This document shows positions 5,052 through 64,000 of a stretch of 64,000 nucleotides of DNA, in pieces (the stretch's first letter is position 1; every line of letters begins with the position of its first letter). This DNA is from Shigella phage Moonfish: the sequence record PQ613263. One strand, given 5' to 3'. Below the pieces are notes generated by a model. The model did not search any database and was not told where the DNA came from. It was given only the letters and a program-made list of their open reading frames with translations. The position numbers and the translations under genes are program-made.

Positions 5052-5396
5052 ATGAGTAAAGAATTAACAATCGCTGGACTGGAACATCGACTGGAAGCTG
5101 CTAAAGGTGCAGTTGCACATGCAGAAGATGTACGTAAACTTCTGGAGAATCCACTGTTCCGTAAAGTAATCCTTCGCCAGTTCTGTGTGGAAGATTGTGC
5201 ACGTTACGTGCAAGAGTCTGGTGACCCACTGCTTGAAGCTAACAACCGTGCAGATGCACTGAACATGGCTCAAGCTGCTGGTCACTTACGTCGTTGGCTC
5301 GACCTCGCCATTCGTATGGGCGAACGTGAAGCTGATGTTATTCTACAGGTACAAGAAGAACTCGATGTAGTTCGTGCTGAACCTGAAGACGAATAA
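5052..5396 (+). CDS. Hypothetical head-module protein
   Basis: 114-aa ORF tightly packed between portal and scaffold-like gene. Confidence 0.35.
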   Translation: MSKELTIAGLEHRLEAAKGAVAHAEDVRKLLENPLFRKVILRQFCVEDCARYVQESGDPLLEANNRADALNMAQAAGHLRRWLDLAIRMGEREADVILQVQEELDVVRAEPEDE

Positions 5397-14631: not shown

Positions 14632-17600
14632 TTGAACAGGAAACATGCTATGTCAACATTTGACCGTCTGGCAGGTTTCGCAGACAGCATCACTAATGCC
14701 AAGCAAGTCGATGTCTCTACTGCAACCTCTCAGAAGCAAGCTGCACAAGGGCAAAGCCCTTTCCAATTAACCCCAGAGAATGCTTACAATCTCCAGACTG
14801 GACGTGTAGGTAATCTTGGAACTGGTGCATTCGAACCAGGTTCACTTCAGGCTGACTTCACTCAAGCCTCCCCATTAGAAATCATTAATAAGTACGGTAA
14901 TGAGAAAGGTTTACAGATTCTTAATAGCCGAGCTAATGCTGCTGATGTTGTACGTCAGGACTTATCTAAACAGCGTACTAACGCAGAAGCATTTGGCGAT
15001 ACTCTTTCTGGTGTTGGTCTTGGTGTTGCTAATACCCTTGGGGGCATTGCTGCTCTTGGCACAGGTCTGGTCAATGATAATGCCGGGGCATCCATTGCTT
15101 CCGGGATGGATTGGCTGAATGAAGGTGTACGCAATCTCCAGTCTGATGCACTGAATGCTACCCGTAAAGTTGTTCAGAATCAGAACCAGATTTCTGCTCA
15201 AAAGAACCAGAAACTTTACGAGCAAGATATTAAGAATGGGGAGAACGATTTGGTTGCCTCCCTGTCTCGCATTGGTCGTGACGCTTTTGATTCTGTTGCT
15301 AATACACTTGATAATGGTATGGCTGCTACCGATGGACTGAGCGAAGGTGTTGGTTCCCTCTTTACTGCTGGTCCACTTATCCGTGGTGTGTCTGCATTAG
15401 GTAAAGTAATGGTTGGTGGTGATAAAGCTGTTAGGGGTATTACCTTAGCTGCTGAGTTGGGTTCACGTCCTGCACAGGTTGCACTGTCTGCTGGTCGCGT
15501 TGCTGCACCTGCTATTGCAATCGGTGGCATGGAAGCAGGTGGTGCATACCAACAGACTGCATCTGAAATCATGAAGATGTCCCACCAAGAATTGGCAAGT
15601 AAGTCTCCTGTTTACCAACAACATATTGCTGATGGTTTACCTCCTGATGAAGCACGTCGTCAGACTGCATCTGAAACAGGTATCACTGCTGCTGGCTTAA
15701 CTGCTCCAGTTGCTGCTGCTACTGGTCCACTGGTATCTCGCTTTGAACTTAACCCACTTAGAGTAGGTTCACTGGCTGGTGCTGGTTCTAATATGTTACG
15801 TGAGACTGTAGAAGAAGGTATTCAATCCGGCTTTGGTCAGTTCGCACAGAATACTGCAATCAAGGAAAATGTTGATGCATCCCGTGACACCCTCAAAGGG
15901 GTCGGTGAGCAAGCAGGGCTTGGTGCACTCTACGGCTTCGGTAGTGCTGGAGTTGCTCAAGCTCCTGGTGCAACTGTTAAAGCTGCTGGTGCTGCCACTG
16001 CTCCTGTTGTACGTACTACCCTGGCTGGTGCTTCTCTGGTTGGTAATGCATTAGCTAAAGCTGCTTCCCCTATTACTAACATTCTGGTTCAACGTGGTGA
16101 AGAAGTTGCTAAGCGTAATGAACAAGCATCCCCTGTAGCTGATGCTACGGTTAATGCTGCTGCACAAGAAGCTACTGCTCAGGCAGAACAAGCACAAGCG
16201 ACTGTACAGGAAGCAGTAGATGCAATGGATATCTCTCCTGAGGAGAAGGCTGCTGCTACTCAGTATGCTGCTGACTTAACTCAGGCAATGAACTTTGACC
16301 CTGTAGAATTGGAACAAGCTAACCCGGTAATTCGTGAAGCTGTTTCTGGTTCCACTAACCGTGTTGAAGCTATTCAGAAGATGGCTGACTTGGTTAATAC
16401 AGCAGAAGACCCTAACGTTCAAATGGAAGCTGCTATCCAGATGTATGACAACATCATGTCTATGGATAGCTTCATTAACCGTGACCCAGGTGCACTGGCT
16501 AATCTGGAACAGGGTTCACCTGCTGCTACAATCGTAGACCAGTTCTCTGGTCTGATGGCTAACGTACAGAATACACCGAAGGTACTTCGTGCATTCCGTG
16601 CTATCCATTCCATGATTCAGGAACAGGCTGAAGCAGGTAAGCTGAAAGCTACTGAAGAAGCTAACCAAGCTCAAGCAAACAACATTGCCATGGCTGCTGA
16701 CGTGTCTCCAGAAGTATTGGATGCAGATTCAGTGAACATGGTTCTGAAACATGCAAGTGAAGGTAAGATTACACTGGGGAATCGTCAACGTGCTGCCCTG
16801 CAATCTGCTGCTGCCTTGTTACAGGGTGCACGAGAGTTTGACGCTAAAGCAGAAGAACTAGGCTTACGTCCTCAAGACATTGTTAGTAAACAAATTAAAA
16901 CCGACGAGTCTCGTTCTAACGAAGGACAGTACTCTGCGTTGCAACATGCGAAACGCATTCGTTCTGCGTATAACTCTGGTAACTTCGATTTGGCTTACGC
17001 TTATCTGAGCGACTTTATGAAGTTCGCCCAGCACATGCAGAATAAGGTCGGAGCGTTGAATGAGCATCTGATTTCTGGGAATGCGGATAAGAATAAGTCT
17101 GTTCATTATCAGGCTCTCTCGCCTTCCCGTGAATGGGTACGTAGTCGTACTGGCCTCGGTGTCAATCCTTACGATACCAAGTCTGTTAAGTTTGCCCAGC
17201 AAGTAGGACTGGAGGCCAAAACCGTAGCTGATATTGCTAACGCACTTGCTACGGCTTACCCGGAGCTTAATGTTTCTCATGTGAAAGTTACCTCGTTGGA
17301 TTCACGTCTGAACAAGCCAGCTGCCCAGGTAGTTAAAGAGTTCCGTCAAGGTGGTCTTGATGCCACTCAGTCTCAACAGACCAATGAACCAGTGAATCAG
17401 GTTGATGAATCTCCTGCACCAGTGCAAGAGGACACTACTACTGTACAGCCTAAAGCTAAACCTGTGGTAGAAAATAAGACTGCTCCTACTAAGGAGACTA
17501 GCCCAAAAACAGAAGAAGTCTCTACTACCAAGTCTGAAACAGTAGAAGCTACCCTCACTAATGAGGATACCATCCAGGAAGTAGCTGAAACCAAAACAGA

Positions 17601-20600
17601 AATGGAAACAGTGTTCCCCGTCTATAACAATGAAAAGACACCGAACCAGTTCCTGAAAGCATTTACCCTACCAGAAGAACCTAAGTCTCGTACCATTGGT
17701 TCTGAGTCTCCGTTGACTGATGTTAAGCAAGCACTGTCTTCTGTTGCTCGCTTTGAAGCATTCACTCAAAAAGAAAATAACGCTCTCACAGGTGATGTGA
17801 TTAAGCGTTATCAGGACTTAATGGACTTTGGTGAAACTCTGAAGACTACTTTGTCTGAACGACTGGCTAAGTTCCTTGCTAACAAAAATGTCGGTAAACG
17901 TTTTGCAGAAGGTACGGAAGCTAACCGTTGGGTAGGTGGCAAACTACTGAATATCGTTGAACAAGATGGTGACACCTTTAAGTTCAATGACCAGTTGTTA
18001 GAGACTGCTGTGCTTGCTGGTCTGCAATGGCGACTAACTGCTACACAGAATGCTGCTGTTAAAGACATGAAAGACGTAGCTGCTATTACGGGTGTAGAAG
18101 CATCTCTGTTACCAGAAGGTATTCTGGCTGAGTTCGAGAATGCTCAGACTCTGGTTGAAGCTACTAACTCACTGGCTCAGAAGATCGAATCCTACTGGGG
18201 TTTGAACCGTAACCCTAATGCACCACTGGGTTATACCAAGGGTATCCCAATGGCAATGGCTACAGAGATTCTGTCTTCCCTCATTGAGATGGGTGAAGTT
18301 AAAGAGTCTATGCTGGATGTGTCTGAGATTGACCCAGATTCCAATAAGACTGTCGGCCTGTATACCATTGAGAAGCTGGATGACAATGATGCCATTAACA
18401 AATTCCCTACTGCTATTGAGGAAGCTGTCCTCTTAGAACCAGAAGAGAAAATGTATTTCGGTGACGACATTCCTTCCGTGGCTCAAACTCAATTACGTAA
18501 TCCTGCTGTTAAGAATACCCCGGAACAGAAAGCTGCTCTGAAAGTAGAACAGGCTACTGAGTTCCGTGTACACATGCCGATGGTTAACTTCTATGAAGCT
18601 ATGGGCCGTGACAACATACTGGAATTGATGGGTGCTGGTTCTCTTAATCCTGAACTGTTGAACGTGAACACTGCTAAGTCACTGGAGGGTAAAAACCTGT
18701 CCGTGTCCATGGCATATGATTCCTTGTTTGGTGTAATCAATCAGATTAAGGAACAGGAGAATGGACTAGATACACCTATCCACTATGGCTACAACATGAC
18801 CCGTGTAGGTCGTATGCAGATGCTTGGTAAGAACAACCCACAGTCCAGCAAACTGGTACGTGAAGCAATCCTGCCAACCTTCTCTACTATTGACTTGAGT
18901 AATGAAAACAGCCAAACGTTCTCTGACTTCCAGTTAGGTCTGGCTCAGGCATTGGGTATCAAGGTTCATAATATGTCCCGTGAAGCTATGTCTGAAAAGC
19001 TGACCAAAGCTTTGGAAGGTAATCTGAAACCTGCTGTTGATATGATGGTTGAGTTTGATAAGTCTGGTCACTTACCTGCTGATGCAGTTGATATTCTGAA
19101 GACATCTCTGGGTGGCGATAAATCATTCGTAGCTCTCATGGCTCTTATGGAATATGCCCGTTACCTGAACAGTGATGACCGTGCCAACTTTAATACCCCT
19201 CTGTACGTTGAAGCCGATGGTGTAACCAACGGTCCGATTAACGCAATGGTATTAATGACTGGTGGTAAGTTCACTCCAGACTGGATTAAGAATACTGCTA
19301 AAGGTGGTTTGTTCTTCGGTAAAGCTGGTAAGACTATGAACGAACATCGTTCACAGGATGACAGTGTTGACTTGTATGAAGCATCCACCAATGGTCTGCA
19401 ACAAGCATTGGGTGAATTGCGTAGTACTTACCGTAACAACGTTCCTGTTATGAGCCAGATGAACCATCTCCAGAAGTTAATGGACCTGTTCATCAAAGAC
19501 TTTAACTTGAATGAAGACGGTACTTTGGACCTGAAACGTGGTATCGCTAAAAACCCACTGACTATTACCATCTATGGTTCTGGTGCACGTGGTATTGCTG
19601 GCAAGATGGTTAGTGCAATTACTGACACCATCTATGAACGCTTCAGTGACGTTCTGCAAGCACGTGCTGCTGACCCTAGCATTTCCCCAGCTATGGCGAT
19701 GTTTGGTAAGGAGGCTGCGTCTGAGGCTGATGCTCAGGCTATGCTGGATACTTTCCTTACTTCTATGGAAGCACTGACTGGTAATGTTCCAGTTATGCGT
19801 AAAGGCGAACTGTCTATTCAACAGGCAGAAGGTGCTCTGACTGGTAAGTTAGACCCTCAGAAGTTTACTGTATCTGGTAATGCCTTGAAGAACCTACAAG
19901 AGAACATGCTTCACTTGTTCGTTGAACCAATGCGTACAGGTATCCGTAATACTGTTGGTGAAGGTCTGATGCACTCTACTGAGAACTTGCAGAAGGCTAC
20001 TCAGATTCAGTCTCTGGTATTGCAGGATATGTTCCAACAAGCAGTACAGGCTAAACTGGCAGAAAAAGAAAATGACCCAACGTGGAAGAAGGGTGATTTC
20101 TTAACACAGAAAGAACTGAATGAAATTCAGGAATCATTATCTCCACTGGCTCCAATGATTGAGACTGGCGCACAGACTTTCTACATTGCTGGCAGTGAGA
20201 ATACTGATGTTGCTAACCAAGTACTGGCTACCAACTTAGATGACCGTATGCGTGTGCCAATGAGCATCTATGCCCCGTCACAAGCAGGTGTTGCTGGTAT
20301 TCCATTTATGACCATCGGTACTGGTGATGGCATGATGATGCAGACCCTTTCTACTATGAAAGGTGCTCCGAAGAATACCCTGAAAATCTTTGATGGCATG
20401 AACATTGGTATCAATGACATCACTGATGCAAGCCGTAAAGCTAATGAGGCTGTATACACTTCCTGGCAGGGTAACCCTATCAAGAATGTTTATGACTCCT
20501 TCGCTAAGTTCATGAAGAATGTAGACTTCAGTAAACTGTCTGATGAAACCAAACAGGCTATCGCTAAGTCTGCTCTGGAATACGACCAGCGTGAAGGTGC

Positions 20601-56616: not shown

Positions 56617-56631
56617 AGCTGCGGAGCAGCT
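56617..56631 (-). promoter_or_regulatory. Hairpin promoter candidate (N4 vRNAP-type), core agctGCGGAGCagct
   Basis: 6-bp stem, 3-nt GGA loop; 35 nt upstream of the RNAP II small-subunit start; identical core at three other sites. Confidence 0.55.
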
Positions 56632-57956: not shown

Positions 57957-58174
57957 TTCTGATACCCCTGAATATAGTTAATACGGCGAATACGTTGAGT
58001 AGATGCCTTAACAGCCATCTGATGATTTTCTTCTTTGTGCTGATTTTCCAGCACCTTAGCCCATTCTTCCTGGTTCCGTTGTTTCTGTAATATACGACTA
58101 CAACGTTTATGATTGGCAACTCCACGTCCTTTCTTACAGACTGGGCATATACCATAATCGTTTGAGTACATCAT
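57953..58174 (-). CDS. Small zinc-ribbon protein
   Basis: 73 aa with CPVCKK...HKRC. Confidence 0.3.
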   Translation of the reverse strand: MMYSNDYGICPVCKKGRGVANHKRCSRILQKQRNQEEWAKVLENQHKEENHQMAVKASTQRIRRINYIQGYQK

Positions 58175-58479
58175 TGGCTTAAAGCCTCCATTAATATTTT
58201 ACGAATAACGTTAACATCAGATTCAGTACCAATTAAACCAACAGGTTTCTTTGTACTATCTGTGACAAAGGATGCAATCCTTTCCATCTCTGCTGTAATT
58301 AATTTGTCACCACTAATAAGACGATTACGAAGGTAAGCCTCATAAGCTACCTCTATATCTTCTACTGTGGTTCTTTCATTACGAGTGAATGGATTACTTA
58401 ATGGGAAGGGTAAATGTACCCGTATATTCCTGTCAGCTACCTTAGCTAAGTGAGGGAGTATACATACTATTTCATTCAA
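58171..58479 (-). CDS. Hypothetical protein
   Basis: 102-aa ORF. Confidence 0.3.
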   Translation of the reverse strand: MNEIVCILPHLAKVADRNIRVHLPFPLSNPFTRNERTTVEDIEVAYEAYLRNRLISGDKLITAEMERIASFVTDSTKKPVGLIGTESDVNVIRKILMEALSQ

Positions 58480-58520
58480 GATTCTTTCTCCTATTTAAAT
58501 ACATATCTAAACTATTCAAG

Positions 58521-58557
58521 AATAAAAAATAGGAGCCTCCTATTGGAGGACTCCTTA
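58521..58557 (-). terminator. Rho-independent terminator
   Basis: Hairpin aggagcctcc-tatt-ggaggactcct with A-run on +. Confidence 0.45.
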
Positions 58558-58848
58558 CTATTTGATACATGGGTGATTGAAGGTAACAATCTTACGTACT
58601 GGTTCAGATGTCTGTTGCTTAGCAGCCAGACGCCCTTTCATCTTTTGTACGTCAGCTTTGGTTCCCATGATTAATGACTTACGCATGTTTAGTACTCCAC
58701 ATAAAGTTATAAGGTTTACCGTTACGTACAATTCTTACAGCCATTTGATAACCATTGATTTGTACAACACCATAGTGTCTCTTTTGGTCACCAGTCTGGT
58801 TCCGTCTGAAGATACACTCTTCAATAGCATCATTGATATTAGTGAACA

Positions 58849-59037
58849 TCATTGGTTCCTCTTTGCAAACTCTTCTGCTTGTTGCTTGTAGTACTGAGTC
58901 ATTGCTTTCTTGTGTTTAACACTAGCAATGAGACACTCGATAGTAACGAATGGCAGCTTAGCAATAAGCAGCCACTTTTGACGTAACTTCCAGCCTAGAA
59001 AGTAGAAGATTACACAGAAAGCGATGAAGTCTAACAT
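58849..59037 (-). CDS. Small membrane protein
   Basis: 62 aa with TM segment. Confidence 0.3.
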   Translation of the reverse strand: MLDFIAFCVIFYFLGWKLRQKWLLIAKLPFVTIECLIASVKHKKAMTQYYKQQAEEFAKRNQ

Positions 59038-59139
59038 GGTTATTTCCTCTTCTAAGATAGCTCTAATGGGATAGGTTTTAATTTTAGACCCCCTTCGTCG
59101 AAAGAGGCGTAAAAGTTAAACTTAGCTTATCGCATAGTT

Positions 59140-59168
59140 AAAATAAAAGGACTCCCCGAAGGGAGTCC
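59140..59168 (-). terminator. Rho-independent terminator
   Basis: Hairpin ggactccc-cgaa-gggagtcc with preceding A-run on +. Confidence 0.55.
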
Positions 59169-59177
59169 AGTTGTTGA

Positions 59178-59564
59178 TTAGAAAGTCAGTTTACGAGCAT
59201 ATTTATTCTCATCGGCAGGAATAGATTCTTCCTGAGCCTTCACGCGTCTTAACTGAACTTGCAGGTTAATGATACCTTCTTCACCTGGTTCCAGGTTCTG
59301 AGCATATTCGATTAACTGTTCCAGCAAATCGTTCTGTGCACAACGCATAGCACGGAAGTCAGCATTGCTGCTATTAGTAGGCAGTGCTTCCTGAGTATCC
59401 AGTGGAATACCAGTAGGCAGAGAGATGAATTTCTCATCATCAGAGCCTTCATTAGCAACATAACCAATGTTCAGCCAGAACTGAGCCTTAGGCTTAGCAG
59501 CTTTAGTTTCAGCAGTGGTAGCAGCAACGTTAGATTGACCGAAAGTGAATTTTTGAATAGACAT
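59178..59564 (-). CDS. Early protein, unknown function (start at internal ATG with GGAGAG RBS)
   Basis: Track ORF 59178..59663; the ATG at about 59564 has an RBS; first gene downstream of a hairpin promoter. Confidence 0.35.
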
Positions 59565-59674
59565 TTTGTACTCTCCAGATAAATGATTGTTTGATTGATG
59601 GGTTTGTCTGTCGGTGACTAAACCCAAGAAAAGACTTAGGATTTCAATGATTAGTGGATGCATTTACGTCCTCA

Positions 59675-59689
59675 AGCTGCGGAGCAGCT
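59675..59689 (-). promoter_or_regulatory. Hairpin promoter candidate (N4 vRNAP-type), core agctGCGGAGCagct
   Basis: Identical to the 56617 hairpin; intergenic. Confidence 0.55.
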
Positions 59690-59693
59690 ACTT

Positions 59694-59897
59694 TCAGACC
59701 GACTGCAATACTGACTTATCGTGAGGTAAGTCCTCAAGGGAGTTGAATACTTCTTCTGTGCTATCCAATCGGATACCAATGGATGGATCTTCAACCATTA
59801 CACAGTTGTAATCAGTTGATTCATTTACTTTTTGTAACTCAAATCCACCATGTACAAAGAACTTTTCACCATCTTTAACGTCAACAAATGTAGCCAT
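59694..59897 (-). CDS. Hypothetical early protein
   Basis: 67-aa ORF 34 nt downstream of a hairpin promoter. Confidence 0.3.
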   Translation of the reverse strand: MATFVDVKDGEKFFVHGGFELQKVNESTDYNCVMVEDPSIGIRLDSTEEVFNSLEDLPHDKSVLQSV

Positions 59898-59930
59898 TTT
59901 ATTACTCCAGTAGTTATAGGGATACCCAAT

Positions 59931-59945
59931 AGAAGCGGAGCTTCT
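59931..59945 (-). promoter_or_regulatory. Hairpin promoter candidate (N4 vRNAP-type), core agaaGCGGAGCttct
   Basis: 6-bp stem, GGA loop; intergenic. Confidence 0.55.
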
Positions 59946-59951
59946 TGGTTT

Positions 59952-60305
59952 TTAAGACAAGCGTTTAAGTAATTCTGCCTTAGCAGACTCATACTCTTGT
60001 TTAGCTTTAGTGAGGTCAATGGTTGACTCACCCCAGTGAAGGATATCTATTGTATAGGTTGTAAGAACATCGACTGCATCTTCGAAGCGAGCCAGTAGTT
60101 CTTCCTTATCAGGACCATCGAATTGTTCCCATTGCCATACATAACCGGATAACTTAACTGTTTCCCCTTTCTCAAAGTAAGGTTCTTCTCCAAATAGGAA
60201 AGTAGAATCTTCAGTTAATCGGATATGTTCTCCTTCCAATTCTCCTACGATAATTGTTCCAATAGGGATGTCAGAATTACCCCTGATACAACGGAATTTA
60301 GTCAT
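59952..60305 (-). CDS. Hypothetical early protein
   Basis: 117-aa ORF. Confidence 0.3.
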   Translation of the reverse strand: MTKFRCIRGNSDIPIGTIIVGELEGEHIRLTEDSTFLFGEEPYFEKGETVKLSGYVWQWEQFDGPDKEELLARFEDAVDVLTTYTIDILHWGESTIDLTKAKQEYESAKAELLKRLS

Positions 60306-60361
60306 GATTTTCTATCCTAGAAGTAGATAGTTATCTACTTAGTCTATCTATCTAATGTTTA

Positions 60362-60388
60362 TAAAAGGAGACTCCGAAGAGCCTCCAT
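60362..60388 (-). terminator. Weak terminator-like hairpin
   Basis: Imperfect hairpin ggagactc-cgaa-gagcctcc with A-run on +. Confidence 0.3.
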
Positions 60389-60398
60389 ATTTGATTTA

Positions 60399-60719
60399 CT
60401 ATTTAGTCAGGATGTCGATTACTTTTGAATATTCTGCGTTATAGATACGAGCGTTCTCTGAATCTTTGCAGAATTCTTCGATACTTTTCTTACGCATAGT
60501 CTCGTTCATAGCTGTTTCTTCAGCTAATTTGTTTACGAATGTATGCATTTCTAATTTAGTACGGATGGCTTGTTTCTCTGCCATAGTAGATACATATGAA
60601 TTAAGCATACCTACTGCTTTAGTAGCTGTGCCGAATGTATCTGCAACAGTAGTAGCAGCTGAGTTAACAGTACCCAGTAAAGTTCCTGCGGTCATACGTA
60701 CAGTAGCGGTAGTAGTCAT
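60399..60719 (-). CDS. Hypothetical early protein (coiled-coil)
   Basis: 106-aa ORF 43 nt downstream of a hairpin promoter. Confidence 0.3.
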   Translation of the reverse strand: MTTTATVRMTAGTLLGTVNSAATTVADTFGTATKAVGMLNSYVSTMAEKQAIRTKLEMHTFVNKLAEETAMNETMRKKSIEEFCKDSENARIYNAEYSKVIDILTK

Positions 60720-60761
60720 GATGATAGCTCCAATAGTTGATGATAGGACGACATGTCCATA

Positions 60762-60776
60762 ACATGCGGAGCATGT
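60762..60776 (-). promoter_or_regulatory. Hairpin promoter candidate (N4 vRNAP-type), core acatGCGGAGCatgt
   Basis: 6-bp stem, GGA loop; in a 267-nt intergenic region. Confidence 0.5.
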
Positions 60777-60986
60777 GTAACGTGTAAGGTGGGGTAGGGT
60801 AGTGGCTACAGGGTCAACATACCGGGGGGGATGGTTGAGTGTAAGGGTGTAGCCCCAGCCACACCACTAAAGCTGAACATAGCTATGATGAAATCCCTAA
60901 GAAAAAATATGAGAAGTACTTTCCCTATGCGACTACTGCTAGACATAGCTATCAACATTTTGACATGCAAAAATATCATAGCTATC

Positions 60987-61313
60987 TCACTTATAAGCAG
61001 CTAAATAGGAGGGAGCATACACCAGGAATATGGATTGAAGGGTATCGCTCGATGTGAAGGTAAGGGTGTACTTATCAGTGTTCACATGCCAGGGGGAATG
61101 TACATATGTAGACCAGGGTAATTCCTTTCCTGGTTCCTGAAGTTTTACAATAACTTTCCTGCCTAGTATTAGAGCCAGACCTTTCACTTCATGAAGGGTT
61201 TGCTCATCTGGTACTAGGATAATAGGAGTGAGTCTACCTGGTTCGAGGTCTTGTAAGGTTGTATGGGCAGTGGGATTGGGTCCACCAGCATAACCTATCT
61301 TAGTGAGTTTCAT
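60987..61313 (-). CDS. Small early protein, paralog family member A
   Basis: Shares IILVPDEQTLHEVKGL and SPWHVNTDKYTLTF with 62014..62298. Confidence 0.4.
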   Translation of the reverse strand: MKLTKIGYAGGPNPTAHTTLQDLEPGRLTPIILVPDEQTLHEVKGLALILGRKVIVKLQEPGKELPWSTYVHSPWHVNTDKYTLTFTSSDTLQSIFLVYAPSYLAAYK

Positions 61314-61316
61314 TTG

Positions 61317-61694
61317 TTATACCCCGTAATCTATCTTAACCAGTCTACCTTTGTAGTAACCAAAGTTCTTAGGGAAGGCATCATACTCAAAGAACTCTTT
61401 ACCGAGTGGCTGTGGTTCATTGGCTGCATCTAAGTATAGCTTCTCTAACTCTACCCAGAATAAACCAGTATGTTTCACAGGCTTAGCCCTGTGCATGATT
61501 AGAACCAGACCAAATCTATTAGAGTACTTGATTGGGCATAGGAACTTATTGTTGTAATCCTTCCACTGTCCTTCAGTTAGATTGCTTAACATACCTTGTA
61601 CGAAGTGTTTCCATGTAGAGAGGATAGGGAACTTAATTGCGTAATGACGAGTGAGTATTACCCATCTGGTTCCACCGGAGCGTATTAGTTTCAT
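61317..61694 (-). CDS. Hypothetical early protein
   Basis: 125-aa ORF. Confidence 0.3.
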   Translation of the reverse strand: MKLIRSGGTRWVILTRHYAIKFPILSTWKHFVQGMLSNLTEGQWKDYNNKFLCPIKYSNRFGLVLIMHRAKPVKHTGLFWVELEKLYLDAANEPQPLGKEFFEYDAFPKNFGYYKGRLVKIDYGV

Positions 61695-62017
61695 TTGGTA
61701 GCCTTGAATTGTGGTAACTGATTAAGAAGACTATCCATGTAGTAGCAGTATGCCTCGGAGGATTCGTCATTAATTGGAAGACCAATGAATCCAAAGGTAT
61801 AAATGCAGAAGTGATTAAGCTCATGAACCAAGGTTATCTTACTATCATCAAATATACCCATAAGCACAAAGTTGTCCGCTATGTAGCAGGTTTTTCCTTT
61901 AAGGGTTGTTTCCTTTTCTGGTTCAGTACCACGGTATGCTTTATGCTTCTTAGAGAATGTAGCCCAGTCATATACTACTTCTAACTGTACTGGATAGGGG
62001 GATGTGTTTAGTTTCAT
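61691..62017 (-). CDS. Hypothetical early protein
   Basis: 108-aa ORF. Confidence 0.3.
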   Translation of the reverse strand: MKLNTSPYPVQLEVVYDWATFSKKHKAYRGTEPEKETTLKGKTCYIADNFVLMGIFDDSKITLVHELNHFCIYTFGFIGLPINDESSEAYCYYMDSLLNQLPQFKATK

Positions 62018-62298
62018 TGTCTTTCCTTATAGATTAGGGTGTTATCCTCGAAGGATAGAATGTACTTGTCTGTATTGAGATACCAAGGACTGAAGCTCCC
62101 CTGCCAGGACATAGGTGCACTTGGTTCAAGTAGATGTACTTCTGCTTTCTTATTGTATAAGAAAAGTAATCCTTGTAGTTCATACAAGGACTGTTCGTCT
62201 GGAACCAGGATAAGTATATCAGCATCCATGCGAGCTACTTCTTTATGGTGGGAGCAAACATTTCCGAATTCTCCTGAATAATTTTTATAGATAACCAT
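62014..62298 (-). CDS. Small early protein, paralog family member B
   Basis: ILILVPDEQSLYELQGL and SPWYLNTDKYILSF. Confidence 0.4.
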   Translation of the reverse strand: MVIYKNYSGEFGNVCSHHKEVARMDADILILVPDEQSLYELQGLLFLYNKKAEVHLLEPSAPMSWQGSFSPWYLNTDKYILSFEDNTLIYKERQ

Positions 62299-62618
62299 TA
62301 GCAGCTCCCGTCGCTAGATAAATATGAGGTAGAAGGATAGAGGGTAATGAGTCTACCAGTAAGAGTAGTAGCTACCATAGGTTCGCTGGAGGAGTAGATG
62401 TATACCCTCTTACCTTCTGGTATCTCAATAGAGGTATCTATCTTAACAAAGTTAATAGGTACACCTAACATTAGACAAGAACCAATGAACTCATCTGCTT
62501 CCTCACTGGGTTCATAATAGACAGTGACACCATCCAGTTTACCTTCGAAGAAATCCCTCTTAGTTAGACCAGGCCATCTAATGTTAGAACTGTATGCAGC
62601 TAATGTGTAGAAGTGCAT
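62298..62618 (-). CDS. Small early protein, possible distant family member
   Basis: VTVYYEPSEEADEFIGSCLMLG resembles the family motif. Confidence 0.3.
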   Translation of the reverse strand: MHFYTLAAYSSNIRWPGLTKRDFFEGKLDGVTVYYEPSEEADEFIGSCLMLGVPINFVKIDTSIEIPEGKRVYIYSSSEPMVATTLTGRLITLYPSTSYLSSDGSC

Positions 62619-62621
62619 AGC

Positions 62622-62936
62622 TTACTTCCTTACATAGTAATAACGGTATTCGTCATTCTCATAACGACTAACCCATTGGTAGTCATCAGACACCAACATA
62701 TATGGGATAGGGTCACCTGCACTGTAGTCGGTATAGACAGAAGGAGGAACAATGCATACAACCTTACGGGCATTACCTGCTAAGAAGAGTTGACCCCTTA
62801 CTTCGTGATAATCTTCTAAAGTAGGAACCAGGATTACTTGGTGAGGATTACTGTTCATGACTTCTTCTAAAGTGAAGTCAGTTGTGTACAGTAACTTCTC
62901 TTTAGTAAAACTGAGGACGGTCATTATGAATTTCAT
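62622..62936 (-). CDS. Small early protein, paralog family member C
   Basis: VILVPTLEDYHEVRGQLFL. Confidence 0.35.
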   Translation of the reverse strand: MKFIMTVLSFTKEKLLYTTDFTLEEVMNSNPHQVILVPTLEDYHEVRGQLFLAGNARKVVCIVPPSVYTDYSAGDPIPYMLVSDDYQWVSRYENDEYRYYYVRK

Positions 62937-63300
62937 GATGGATTCTCCTTCCTTTGGGAAGAGGTCTGAAGTAAATGGAAAGTGTTTTATTAAATACGTT
63001 ATGGTCAGCTATCAATTCCCAACCATCAATCTTATAGAAGCGTACACCGGGAAAGAATGTAGTGAAGTCACTATACTTAGTGAGGTCATACACCCTTGGT
63101 TCAGTAAGTATCTCGGTATTGAGTTGCAGGTTGGATAAGAAAAAAGAACCAATAACTTCATGGGACTCTTCACAATCAGGTAAGAAGACTTGCTGCCATG
63201 GAGCAATGAACTTACTTACTGCTTCTGGTTCTCCTAAGAGATAAGGCTCCTGCCCTCGTAGTACTCCGGTAATATCAAAATCAAAACAGTAGATGCTCAT
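62902..63300 (-). CDS. Small early protein, paralog family member D
   Basis: VFLPDCEESHEVIGSFFL; start may be internal because the ORF overlaps its neighbour. Confidence 0.35.
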   Translation of the reverse strand: MSIYCFDFDITGVLRGQEPYLLGEPEAVSKFIAPWQQVFLPDCEESHEVIGSFFLSNLQLNTEILTEPRVYDLTKYSDFTTFFPGVRFYKIDGWELIADHNVFNKTLSIYFRPLPKGRRIHHEIHNDRPQFY

Positions 63301-63315
63301 AATTGCATACCTCCA

Positions 63316-63352
63316 GAAAAAGAAATGGGGTAGAGCCTCTCGACTCTACCCC
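63316..63352 (-). terminator. Terminator-like hairpin
   Basis: 9-bp stem ggggtagag...ctctacccc preceded on + by an A-rich run. Confidence 0.4.
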
Positions 63353-63501
63353 TTACCGTTTTCAATCACGGGTCAGTTCATCCCCCTAGGTACTTATGTA
63401 CCATTAGACCTACGGAGTAGGAAAGGAGCCGGGGAACCCTGACTGTAGAAGTTATTAACTCTTTACGAGTACCGCCACTGTCTACTAGGCGGTATGACTA
63501 A

Positions 63502-63792
63502 TCACATCATCTCCGTCATCCGAACGCTATCTTTGCTTCGTTTGATGGAGACACTATGAGGTAATTTTGTGAAGAACACAATAGCAGAAATAGCTTTTTC
63601 TAAAGAGTAACTTTTTGCAGGTTCTTTGACGGTAACCCCTGAAACGTTTTCAAGGAGGAGTATACCGGACAACTCGTGGTATTCCTGCTCGGTCGTGGTA
63701 ATGATGATATCTCCTGGCAGGAACCCAGCCTTCTTGTGGTCAAGTTCTACATATCCGTCAAAGGTATCATCGCTTTTGGTAAATAGTCTCAA
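63502..63792 (-). CDS. Small early protein, paralog family member E
   Basis: IIITTTEQEYHELSGILLL. Confidence 0.35.
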   Translation of the reverse strand: MRLFTKSDDTFDGYVELDHKKAGFLPGDIIITTTEQEYHELSGILLLENVSGVTVKEPAKSYSLEKAISAIVFFTKLPHSVSIKRSKDSVRMTEMM

Positions 63793-64000
63793 GGTAGTAC
63801 TCCTTGGGGAATAAGGTCATCGGAACATTACATACTATTTAGTATCATGAACTTTTTCTATATCATGACTAAAGTGTAACTGTATGGTATGGTTTCTTCA
63901 AGGGGTATCTCACCCCAAGAAAAGAATCTTCGTTAATAGACATAACTTTGTAGAGAGATAAGTATGAGTGAGCTAACTAAGCAGCAGATCATTAATGCCT

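Follow-up and report, generated by a model that had tools for sequence, protein, structure and literature searches.

The 64,000-nucleotide stretch analyzed here (the window) comes from Shigella phage Moonfish (record PQ613263). We describe a tandem array of small genes at positions 60987-63792, which is interrupted by a predicted structured RNA with a terminator. At the nucleotide level, the region shares 82-87% identity with G7C-like coliphages (Gamaleyavirus, Schitoviridae), and a 3456-amino-acid (aa) open reading frame (ORF) at 14632-25002 has the size expected of the virion RNA polymerase (vRNAP). An earlier note on this DNA had named five ORFs, and possibly a sixth, as paralogues. All of them were found at their coordinates on the minus strand, with Shine-Dalgarno sequences. 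In the order of transcription, the array consists of F (63502-63792, 96 aa, beginning with MRLF), E (62902-63300, 132 aa), D (62622-62936, 104 aa), C (62298-62618, 106 aa), B (62014-62298, 94 aa), M (61691-62017, 108 aa), K (61317-61694, 125 aa) and A (60987-61313, 108 aa). D is the central family member and equivalent to G7C gp71.1, and C is equivalent to G7C gp71.2. A and B are variable cassette members and B has A as its nearest paralogue, while M, which contains a HELNH (HExxH) motif, and K are cassette genes unrelated to the family. Between F and E lies a stretch of 177 nucleotides (nt) predicted to form the structured RNA (63317-63493, minus strand), and the ribosome-binding site (RBS) of E, GGAGG at 63314-63310, follows straight after the terminator T-run. 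D and E overlap by 35 nt, and C/B, B/M and M/K abut or overlap; the genes from E to A are therefore arranged as one compact operon.

The relationship between the proteins was tested with Smith-Waterman scores against 500 shuffles. A, B, D, E and F form ten pairs, and in seven of these no shuffle matched the observed score. The strongest pair was A-B (z = 25.9), followed by B-F (8.8), A-D (7.9), B-D (7.8), D-E (7.8), D-F (6.3) and A-F (5.1). Weaker scores were obtained for B-E (z = 3.5), E-F (2.9) and A-E (1.4). In leave-one-out searches, a profile built from four members was run over the 995 six-frame ORFs of the window. The omitted member was always the top ORF outside the training set, with E values of 5.7e-13 for B, 4.8e-10 for A, 8.2e-8 for D, 5.4e-5 for F and 0.014 for E, compared with 0.11-2.8 for the best unrelated ORF. 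The full family profile matched F with an E value of 2.8e-30. The five proteins share a core motif, hydrophobic strand-P-(D/T)-x-E-x-x-(H/Y)-E-x-x-G-x-x-L-L followed by EP/PP, and A and B additionally share SPW(H/Y)xNTDKYxL(T/S)F, as the earlier note had reported for two of the ORFs. Shuffle-controlled alignments left K and M outside the family, and the five-member profile did not find further members among the 995 ORFs. One could argue that the similarity is a chance or compositional artefact or that the ORFs are non-coding, given the weak single pairs such as A-E, the E value of 0.014 for gene E and the fact that C is undetectable by sequence. This reading, to which we give next to no chance, is refuted by the shuffle and profile controls: seven pairs score above every one of their shuffled controls and the profile recovers each member. 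Orthologues are moreover present in hundreds of contigs, every copy is under purifying selection, and the AlphaFold models are confident and mutually consistent. Thus A, B, D, E and F are paralogues, and the part of the earlier reading that described a genuine, diversified tandem family stands; its placement of the genes is taken up below.

The sixth protein, C, had been included by the earlier note with reservation, and its relationship to the family was not detected by hidden Markov model scores or, apart from marginal values, by pairwise scores. An alignment of C orthologues could be aligned with the wider family in register over the core motif, albeit with an HHalign probability of only 13% (P = 0.002). 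The corresponding, degenerate core motif of C is YEPSEEADEFIGSCLMLG, which aligns in register. Among the proteins of the window, structures were modelled for D and C. The AlphaFold model of D had a predicted local distance difference test (pLDDT) score of 85.7 and a predicted template modelling score of 0.79, and the pLDDT of the C model was 74.8. Both models have the same element order, beta-beta-alpha-beta-alpha-beta-beta-beta-beta. In Foldseek searches against BFVD, the C model retrieved the same Schitoviridae proteins as the D model, namely an N4-type gp71, three KP8 proteins, Achromobacter phage proteins and B-like, A-like and D-like proteins. Because C has the element order of D and retrieves the same BFVD set, we count it, by its predicted fold alone, as a sixth and very divergent member. 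The suspicion that C belongs to the family is thus upheld through the models, where sequence scores do not detect it.

The orthologues of F and E in PhAPEC5 and G7C are annotated as N4 gp70-like and gp71-like, and the TTG start of F aligns with the ATG of N4 gp70. F and E are sequence and positional orthologues of N4 gp70 and gp71. The five-member window profile matched both N4 gp70 (E value 5.5e-8) and gp71 (2.6e-5), and these two N4 genes are therefore themselves paralogues. In PHROGs, the six proteins are spread over five families (16338, 11661, 9160, 7213 and 12099), all of unknown function. Pfam gave no family match above the cut-off, NCBIfam and PDB gave no usable match by sequence, either for single proteins or for the profile, and PADLOC gave no match above threshold (best E value 0.019, for D). 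Word-indexed searches returned 523, 215 and 258 homologues; all those listed came from contigs compatible with N4-like phages, and none of them was named. An exhaustive profile search over 1.84 billion cluster representatives yielded only 31 clusters. All but one of these contain proteins of 65-133 aa; the exception, of 901 aa, has a short match that is probably spurious. Tblastn hits were restricted to phages of Escherichia, Shigella and Klebsiella. The fold search in BFVD adds Pseudomonas phage Zuri and phages of Achromobacter, and the fold relatives, often several in one genome, were all found in Schitoviridae.

The predicted fold, beta-beta-alpha-beta-alpha followed by a beta-meander in the models of D and C, resembles known structure in its three-layer alpha/beta arrangement and beta-alpha-beta core, with 70-80 superposable residues. 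An assignment as SF2 helicase RecA-like domain was considered and rejected, as helicase motifs and strong structural similarity were lacking. The H and E of the 'HEVxG' motif give way to Y, N, D or A in distant members, and near-invariance within the family is confined to a proline, a glycine and the EP/PP turn. This pattern of conservation looks structural rather than catalytic. Since no catalytic residues are conserved, binding or modulator proteins appear to be the likeliest products. Small accessory proteins encoded in tandem families are well known from phages. Here, gp70, gp71 and their neighbours are united as one multi-copy superfamily. In the libraries and papers searched, we did not find these genes described as one fold family, nor the conservation of the family across subfamilies. 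The papers searched did not describe gp70 and gp71 as paralogues, and literature searches on their function in N4 returned only unrelated uses of these gene numbers.

We then located the array with respect to the genome ends. The G7C record annotates terminal repeats of 1160 bp, with gp1 144 nt inside the left repeat. At the right end of G7C, gp69 points leftward and is followed by gp70, gp71, gp71.1 and gp71.2 in rightward orientation, and the right repeat begins 59 nt further on. The order in N4 is gp68, gp69 and then gp70, gp71 and gp72. The repeat boundary of G7C maps to about position 60861 of the window (blastn, 91% identity), 126 nt downstream of A, which is the last gene before the predicted repeat. 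In the window as in G7C, N4, KP8 and JWAlpha, the array lies between the small terminase gene and the right repeat and is transcribed away from the terminase. In the window, the gp69-like small terminase gene is on the plus strand and starts at about 63960. Judged by homology with the G7C annotation, the whole array is located in unique DNA adjoining the right terminal repeat. It precedes gp1 (60399-60719) on the map because the assembly is circularly permuted. The N4 early class occupies the left, first-injected part of the genome, and homology with G7C places the array outside this part.

Promoters of the vRNAP were searched as hairpins with a stem of 5-7 bp, a 3-nt loop with a central purine, G at -8 and a start about 11 nt from the loop centre. 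Four hairpins of the N4 type were identified, with loop centres at 60769, 59938, 59682 and 56624 (60762-60776, 59931-59945, 59675-59689 and 56617-56631; the template is the plus strand). All four lie downstream of the array. Each has a stem of 6 bp with the core GC-GGA-GC, and its predicted start (+1) is a G 11 nt away from the loop centre. The first of them, ACATGC-GGA-GCATGT at 60762-60776, stands upstream of gp1, so that predicted repeat start and first promoter hairpin both fall within 60762-60861 (minus strand). One of the four is an exact copy of the N4 P2 hairpin AGAAGCGGAGCTTCT, and the annotated early promoters of KP8 match in number and in placement pattern. A further candidate inside the array, CCTAC-GGA-GTAGG at 63415, was rejected. 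It has A at -8, its GG start is shifted by 2 nt, and the loop varies (CTA in three relatives) while the stem is kept. The upstream hairpin promoter typical of N4 early genes is therefore absent from the array. A scan for sigma-70 promoters revealed no sense-strand site upstream of F or E. 'ACTTTAG' and 'TAATAAC' were also considered as middle-promoter consensus and discarded, as neither recurs at other gene starts.

In N4, vRNAP promoters occur only at the left end, the first part of the genome to be injected (PMC4496689). Genome entry is completed only after middle transcription, and the start sites of RNAPII lie in the left half of the genome (PMC4496689, PMC3715699). In phage LUZ7, the right-end gene cluster is covered by mid-infection transcripts (PMC9163698). 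Based on the right-end position, the missing upstream vRNAP promoter and the LUZ7 transcripts, the idea that these are the earliest early genes is unsupported. The earlier note had put all of them in the earliest part of the early region; they lie instead at the end that is injected last, with every vRNAP hairpin downstream of them. Middle-stage expression is most likely the timing of the array.

The DNA between F and E is unusually conserved. Among 11 Gamaleyaviruses, mean identity was 79.5% for F codons 1-70, 95.6% for the last 26 codons of F, 96.1% for the 200-nt F-E spacer and 94.1% for the intergenic region between gp69 and F. The synonymous substitution rate (dS) of F fell from 1.1-2.5 in codons 1-70 to 0-0.2 in codons 71-96. 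The low dS over the 3' end of F (63502-63582) therefore indicates a constraint at the nucleotide level that overlaps the coding sequence and is continuous with the RNA downstream. On the minus strand, the predicted element is composed of hairpin H1 (63493-63488 / 63476-63471), hairpin H2 (63470-63467 / 63461-63458), an invariant single-stranded block TAATAACTTCTACAG (63457-63443), the helix P3 (63443-63439 / 63376-63372), which encloses two hairpins, a further hairpin (63371-63356) and the terminator (63352-63327, T-run to 63317). By its sequence the latter is an intrinsic terminator, with a stem of 11 pairs, 7 of them G-C, followed by ATTTCTTTTT.

The same layout was observed in N4, in KP8-type phages and in two Achromobacter-type genomes. 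The order is always H1 (CCGCC..GGCGG), H2, single-stranded block, closing helix around a two-hairpin domain and terminator. The sequence of H2 differs in each lineage and the two-hairpin domain is variable. The single-stranded block is near-invariant, reading TAATAAC-N-TCTACAG in the window, GAATAACCACTTCAG and TAATAACCTCTTCAG in N4/KP8 and TAATAACCGTCTACAG in JWAlpha. In N4, KP8, JWAlpha and locus L031, a hairpin with T-run is located 5-15 nt before the RBS of the next gene, and PhAPEC5, JWAlpha and several N4-like records carry an annotated terminator at the matching place. With the Gamaleyavirus sequences, RNAalifold predicted a multi-stem structure in which every one-sided change gives G.U on the sense strand. 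With a three-genus alignment, 27 pairs were predicted, 15 of them with compensatory changes. In the four named helices, 99.1% of the cells were paired, compared with 33-44% when the partners were slid as a control, and 11 of 21 pairs had changed on both sides, compared with 0-2 in the slid controls; the alignment used for counting was also the source of the 21-pair structure. When the Achromobacter lineages were added, H1 and H2 were 100% paired with 5 of 10 pairs compensatory. Over both counts, pairing was 99-100% of cells versus 28-54% in slid controls, with only four lineages represented. Rfam gave no match at E<=1 in 58000-64000, and a tRNA scan of the array region gave none. In a pattern scan of viral contigs for the invariant block, genuine copies were limited to Gamaleyavirus, N4, KP8-type and two Achromobacter-type genomes, and about half of the loci that matched the pattern were chance matches in coding DNA. 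The RNA-terminator element was not found described in the libraries and papers searched. Small hypothetical coding sequences are annotated inside the gp70-gp71 spacer in AlfredRasser, PW7 and phi1_146050 (L021 287-409, L019 231-419 and L020 268-363 in the public records). These probably misannotate the structured RNA.

We read the conserved base pairing as a sign that the gp70 transcript carries a conserved structured RNA at its 3' end. Because its terminator stands against the RBS of gp71, this RNA probably determines or modulates how much read-through reaches the paralogue operon, although the spacer may instead act as a trans-acting small RNA (sRNA) or at the DNA level. A bolder version, which we offer as a tentative idea, is that Schitoviridae possess an undescribed right-end module in which the gp70-like gene is followed by a structured RNA of a new class. 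This RNA, of about 180-270 nt and with an invariant single-stranded UAAUAAC..CUnCAG block, would gate a multi-copy family of a new fold via the terminator, or else act in trans as a phage sRNA. Such gating could couple synthesis of the proteins to completed genome entry or to a polymerase switch.

The composition of the array was then compared among related phages. F, E, D and C are present in 14 of 14 related loci, while the zone between C and gp1 is variable. It holds nothing in G7C, B and M in PhAPEC5 and ECBP1, B in Bas96, and A, M and A, or M alone in other loci. The window, with B, M, K and A, has the fullest set among the 14 loci. N4 has two copies, G7C four (counting C), and the window phage six together with two unrelated cassettes. 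The ratio of nonsynonymous to synonymous substitution rates (dN/dS) was 0.14-0.45 across the genes (F 0.31, E 0.18, C 0.28, A 0.14), which shows purifying selection on all of them. The dS of the array genes was 0.6-0.9, compared with about 0.2 for gp1 and gp2. F is fast-evolving, with 63% mean amino acid identity and a dN of 0.27. The 3' end of G7C gp71.2 (PSSYLTAYK) resembles the 3' end of window A (APSYLAAYK) and not that of window C; the ends compared lie at 60932-61015 and 62298-62330 of the window and at 5171-5254 of locus L004. This likeness suggests gain and loss of cassettes by recombination at conserved gene ends beside the terminal repeat. N4 gp71 has a related C-terminal ending (IPAYK). 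KP8 (Kaypoctavirus) has the same architecture, with five members by profile and an M homologue inside the array. JWAlpha (Rothmandenesvirinae) has a gp70-like gene, a spacer with annotated terminator and four further ORFs before the repeat, two of which reach profile significance.

Taken together, we propose that the right-end module of this Gamaleyavirus genome arose by expansion of the gp70/gp71 pair to six copies that encode middle-stage, non-enzymatic binding proteins in a terminator-gated operon, a reading to which we give a probability of roughly 55%. According to this proposal, an ancestral pair of paralogues, gp70 (F) and gp71 (E), would have given rise to the six copies F, E, D, C, B and A, and the unrelated cassettes M and K would have been inserted among them. 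The products would be small single-domain alpha/beta proteins without conserved catalytic residues, most likely non-enzymatic binders or modulators of host or phage partners, with different copies likely tuned to different partners. As the module enters the cell last, it would most likely be expressed at the middle stage, and not at the very start of infection, from transcripts reaching the right end. F would form its own unit, followed by the structured RNA and the intrinsic terminator immediately before the RBS of E. Because the terminator sits between F and E, the E-D-C-B-M-K-A operon would be made only by transcripts that pass it. Changes in copy number, variable cassettes and fast evolution of F fit binders of variable host or phage partners. 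The analysis shows the paralogy, the orthology to gp70/gp71, the genome position, the lack of early promoters, the purifying selection and the conserved RNA structure, and from these the timing, the gating by the terminator and the binding function are inferred.

An alternative is a set of early-expressed, diversified host-takeover or anti-defence factors made right after injection, which was the view of the earlier note. On the permuted map, the genes are co-oriented with gp1 and lie just upstream of it, copy number and cassette content differ among close relatives, F evolves fast, and the family is limited to one phage family in which it expanded lineage-specifically. We nevertheless consider this view unlikely, as the array lies at the genome end that enters last (PMC4496689), no vRNAP promoter stands upstream and the sole candidate hairpin is unconserved, and the equivalent LUZ7 cluster is a middle-stage one (PMC9163698). 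In addition, dN/dS is well under 1 for each copy and PADLOC gave no match. A host-takeover or anti-defence function with a later timing is possible.

The main rival to the proposed binding proteins is a role at the DNA ends, in which the proteins, and perhaps the conserved non-coding DNA, would serve replication or processing of the terminal repeat, end protection or packaging initiation with the adjacent terminase. This rival is kept alive by the deep positional conservation of the array beside terminase and repeat: in two subfamilies the array directly precedes the right repeat and keeps its synteny with the genes for both terminase subunits, small and large. The non-coding DNA that flanks the genes is conserved to an extreme degree, RecA-like helicase domains are the best, albeit weak, structural match, and the authors of the LUZ7 study suggest a replication-related role for the right-end cluster (PMC9163698). 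However, LUZ7 has unrelated small ORFs in this place, so the family is not universally required, and copy number and cassettes vary among near-identical phages, which would be unusual for core factors of DNA metabolism. Nucleotide-binding motifs are absent from the proteins, and the one-sided changes in the spacer, which all give G.U on the sense strand, favour an RNA over a DNA site. We therefore regard a function at the genome ends as quite improbable.

The closest relatives of the array are N4 gp70 and gp71, themselves uncharacterized, and G7C gp70-gp71.2. They occupy the same place, from the small terminase gene to the right genome end, and share with the window the layout of gp70, spacer, terminator and gp71. 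The closest analogue is the LUZ7 cluster gp87-gp115, a group of 29 small ORFans that runs up to the right terminal repeat. This cluster has the same position and orientation and likewise consists of many small tandem genes of unknown function, and experiments showed it to be a middle-stage transcription unit (PMC3715699, PMC9163698). In contrast to the array, its proteins are of a different size (55-75 aa), LUZ7 is not among the BFVD fold matches, and no long structured spacer follows its first gene.

Wider parallels can be drawn for both parts of the module. The T7 0.3-0.7 region and the pre-early ORFans of T4 and T5 also encode small, fast-evolving, lineage-specific tandem proteins with cassette-like gain and loss. 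In contrast to these early clusters, the window array is found at the last-entering end, without early promoters and with one common fold. For the spacer RNA, analogues are leader, attenuator and antiterminator RNAs, such as the HK022 put RNA, and sRNAs derived from 3' untranslated regions (3'UTRs). Like leader and attenuator RNAs, it is predicted to be structured and is followed directly by an intrinsic terminator in front of an operon. Like 3'UTR-derived sRNAs, it occupies the 3' end of an mRNA, with a terminator as its last part. It differs from these analogues in that no sequence or Rfam match was found and an alternative antiterminator pairing was not demonstrated. N4-like phages are a major transcription model and a frequent choice for phage therapy, and their genes beyond the right-end terminase are without an assigned role. 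The superfamily, its positional conservation across subfamilies and the RNA-terminator element provide a concrete and testable module. The mapping also corrects an easy misreading: when an assembly is circularly permuted, the array can pass for the start of the early genes. Gating of the operon by the RNA, or its action as an sRNA, would, if true, place a further level of regulation on top of the three-polymerase programme of N4.

Strong conservation is also seen in the divergent intergenic region at 63793-63960, which separates F from the gp69-like small terminase gene, with a mean pairwise identity of 0.94 in the 11 Gamaleyaviruses versus 0.795 for F codons 1-70. The blocks conserved in N4 and KP8 include the hairpin GGGGTGAGATACCCC (63916-63902), and a GATTCTTTTCTTGGGGT…ACCCCTTGAAGAAAC hairpin, ACTTTAG and ATACTAA are invariant in these phages. 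The region also has two TCATGATA repeats. It presumably holds the promoters.

The two companion genes were examined in the same libraries. M matches phrog_1365, of unknown function, and has no Pfam, NCBIfam or PDB match. Its clear homologue inside the KP8 array (L016 8353-8685) makes it a recurrent companion of the family. K was seen in the window only, among the loci examined, and matches phrog_4301 only, also of unknown function, with no other match in Pfam, NCBIfam or PDB. By eye, its glycine-rich N-terminus and its 'AIK' and 'IDYG' motifs appear kinase-like. Profile support was not found for K as a mini-kinase or for M as a metallopeptidase, ideas that come only from visual inspection of motifs. 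Elsewhere in the window, ARAGORN predicted one tRNA-Ile gene (anticodon AAT) on the minus strand at 26817-26895. In KP8, three paralogous ORFs of about 60 aa (GNVY…VINIRT…LIG; L016 7976-8182, 8157-8351 and 8685-8855) are interleaved with the gp71-like array, so that the right end holds a second small family with several copies.

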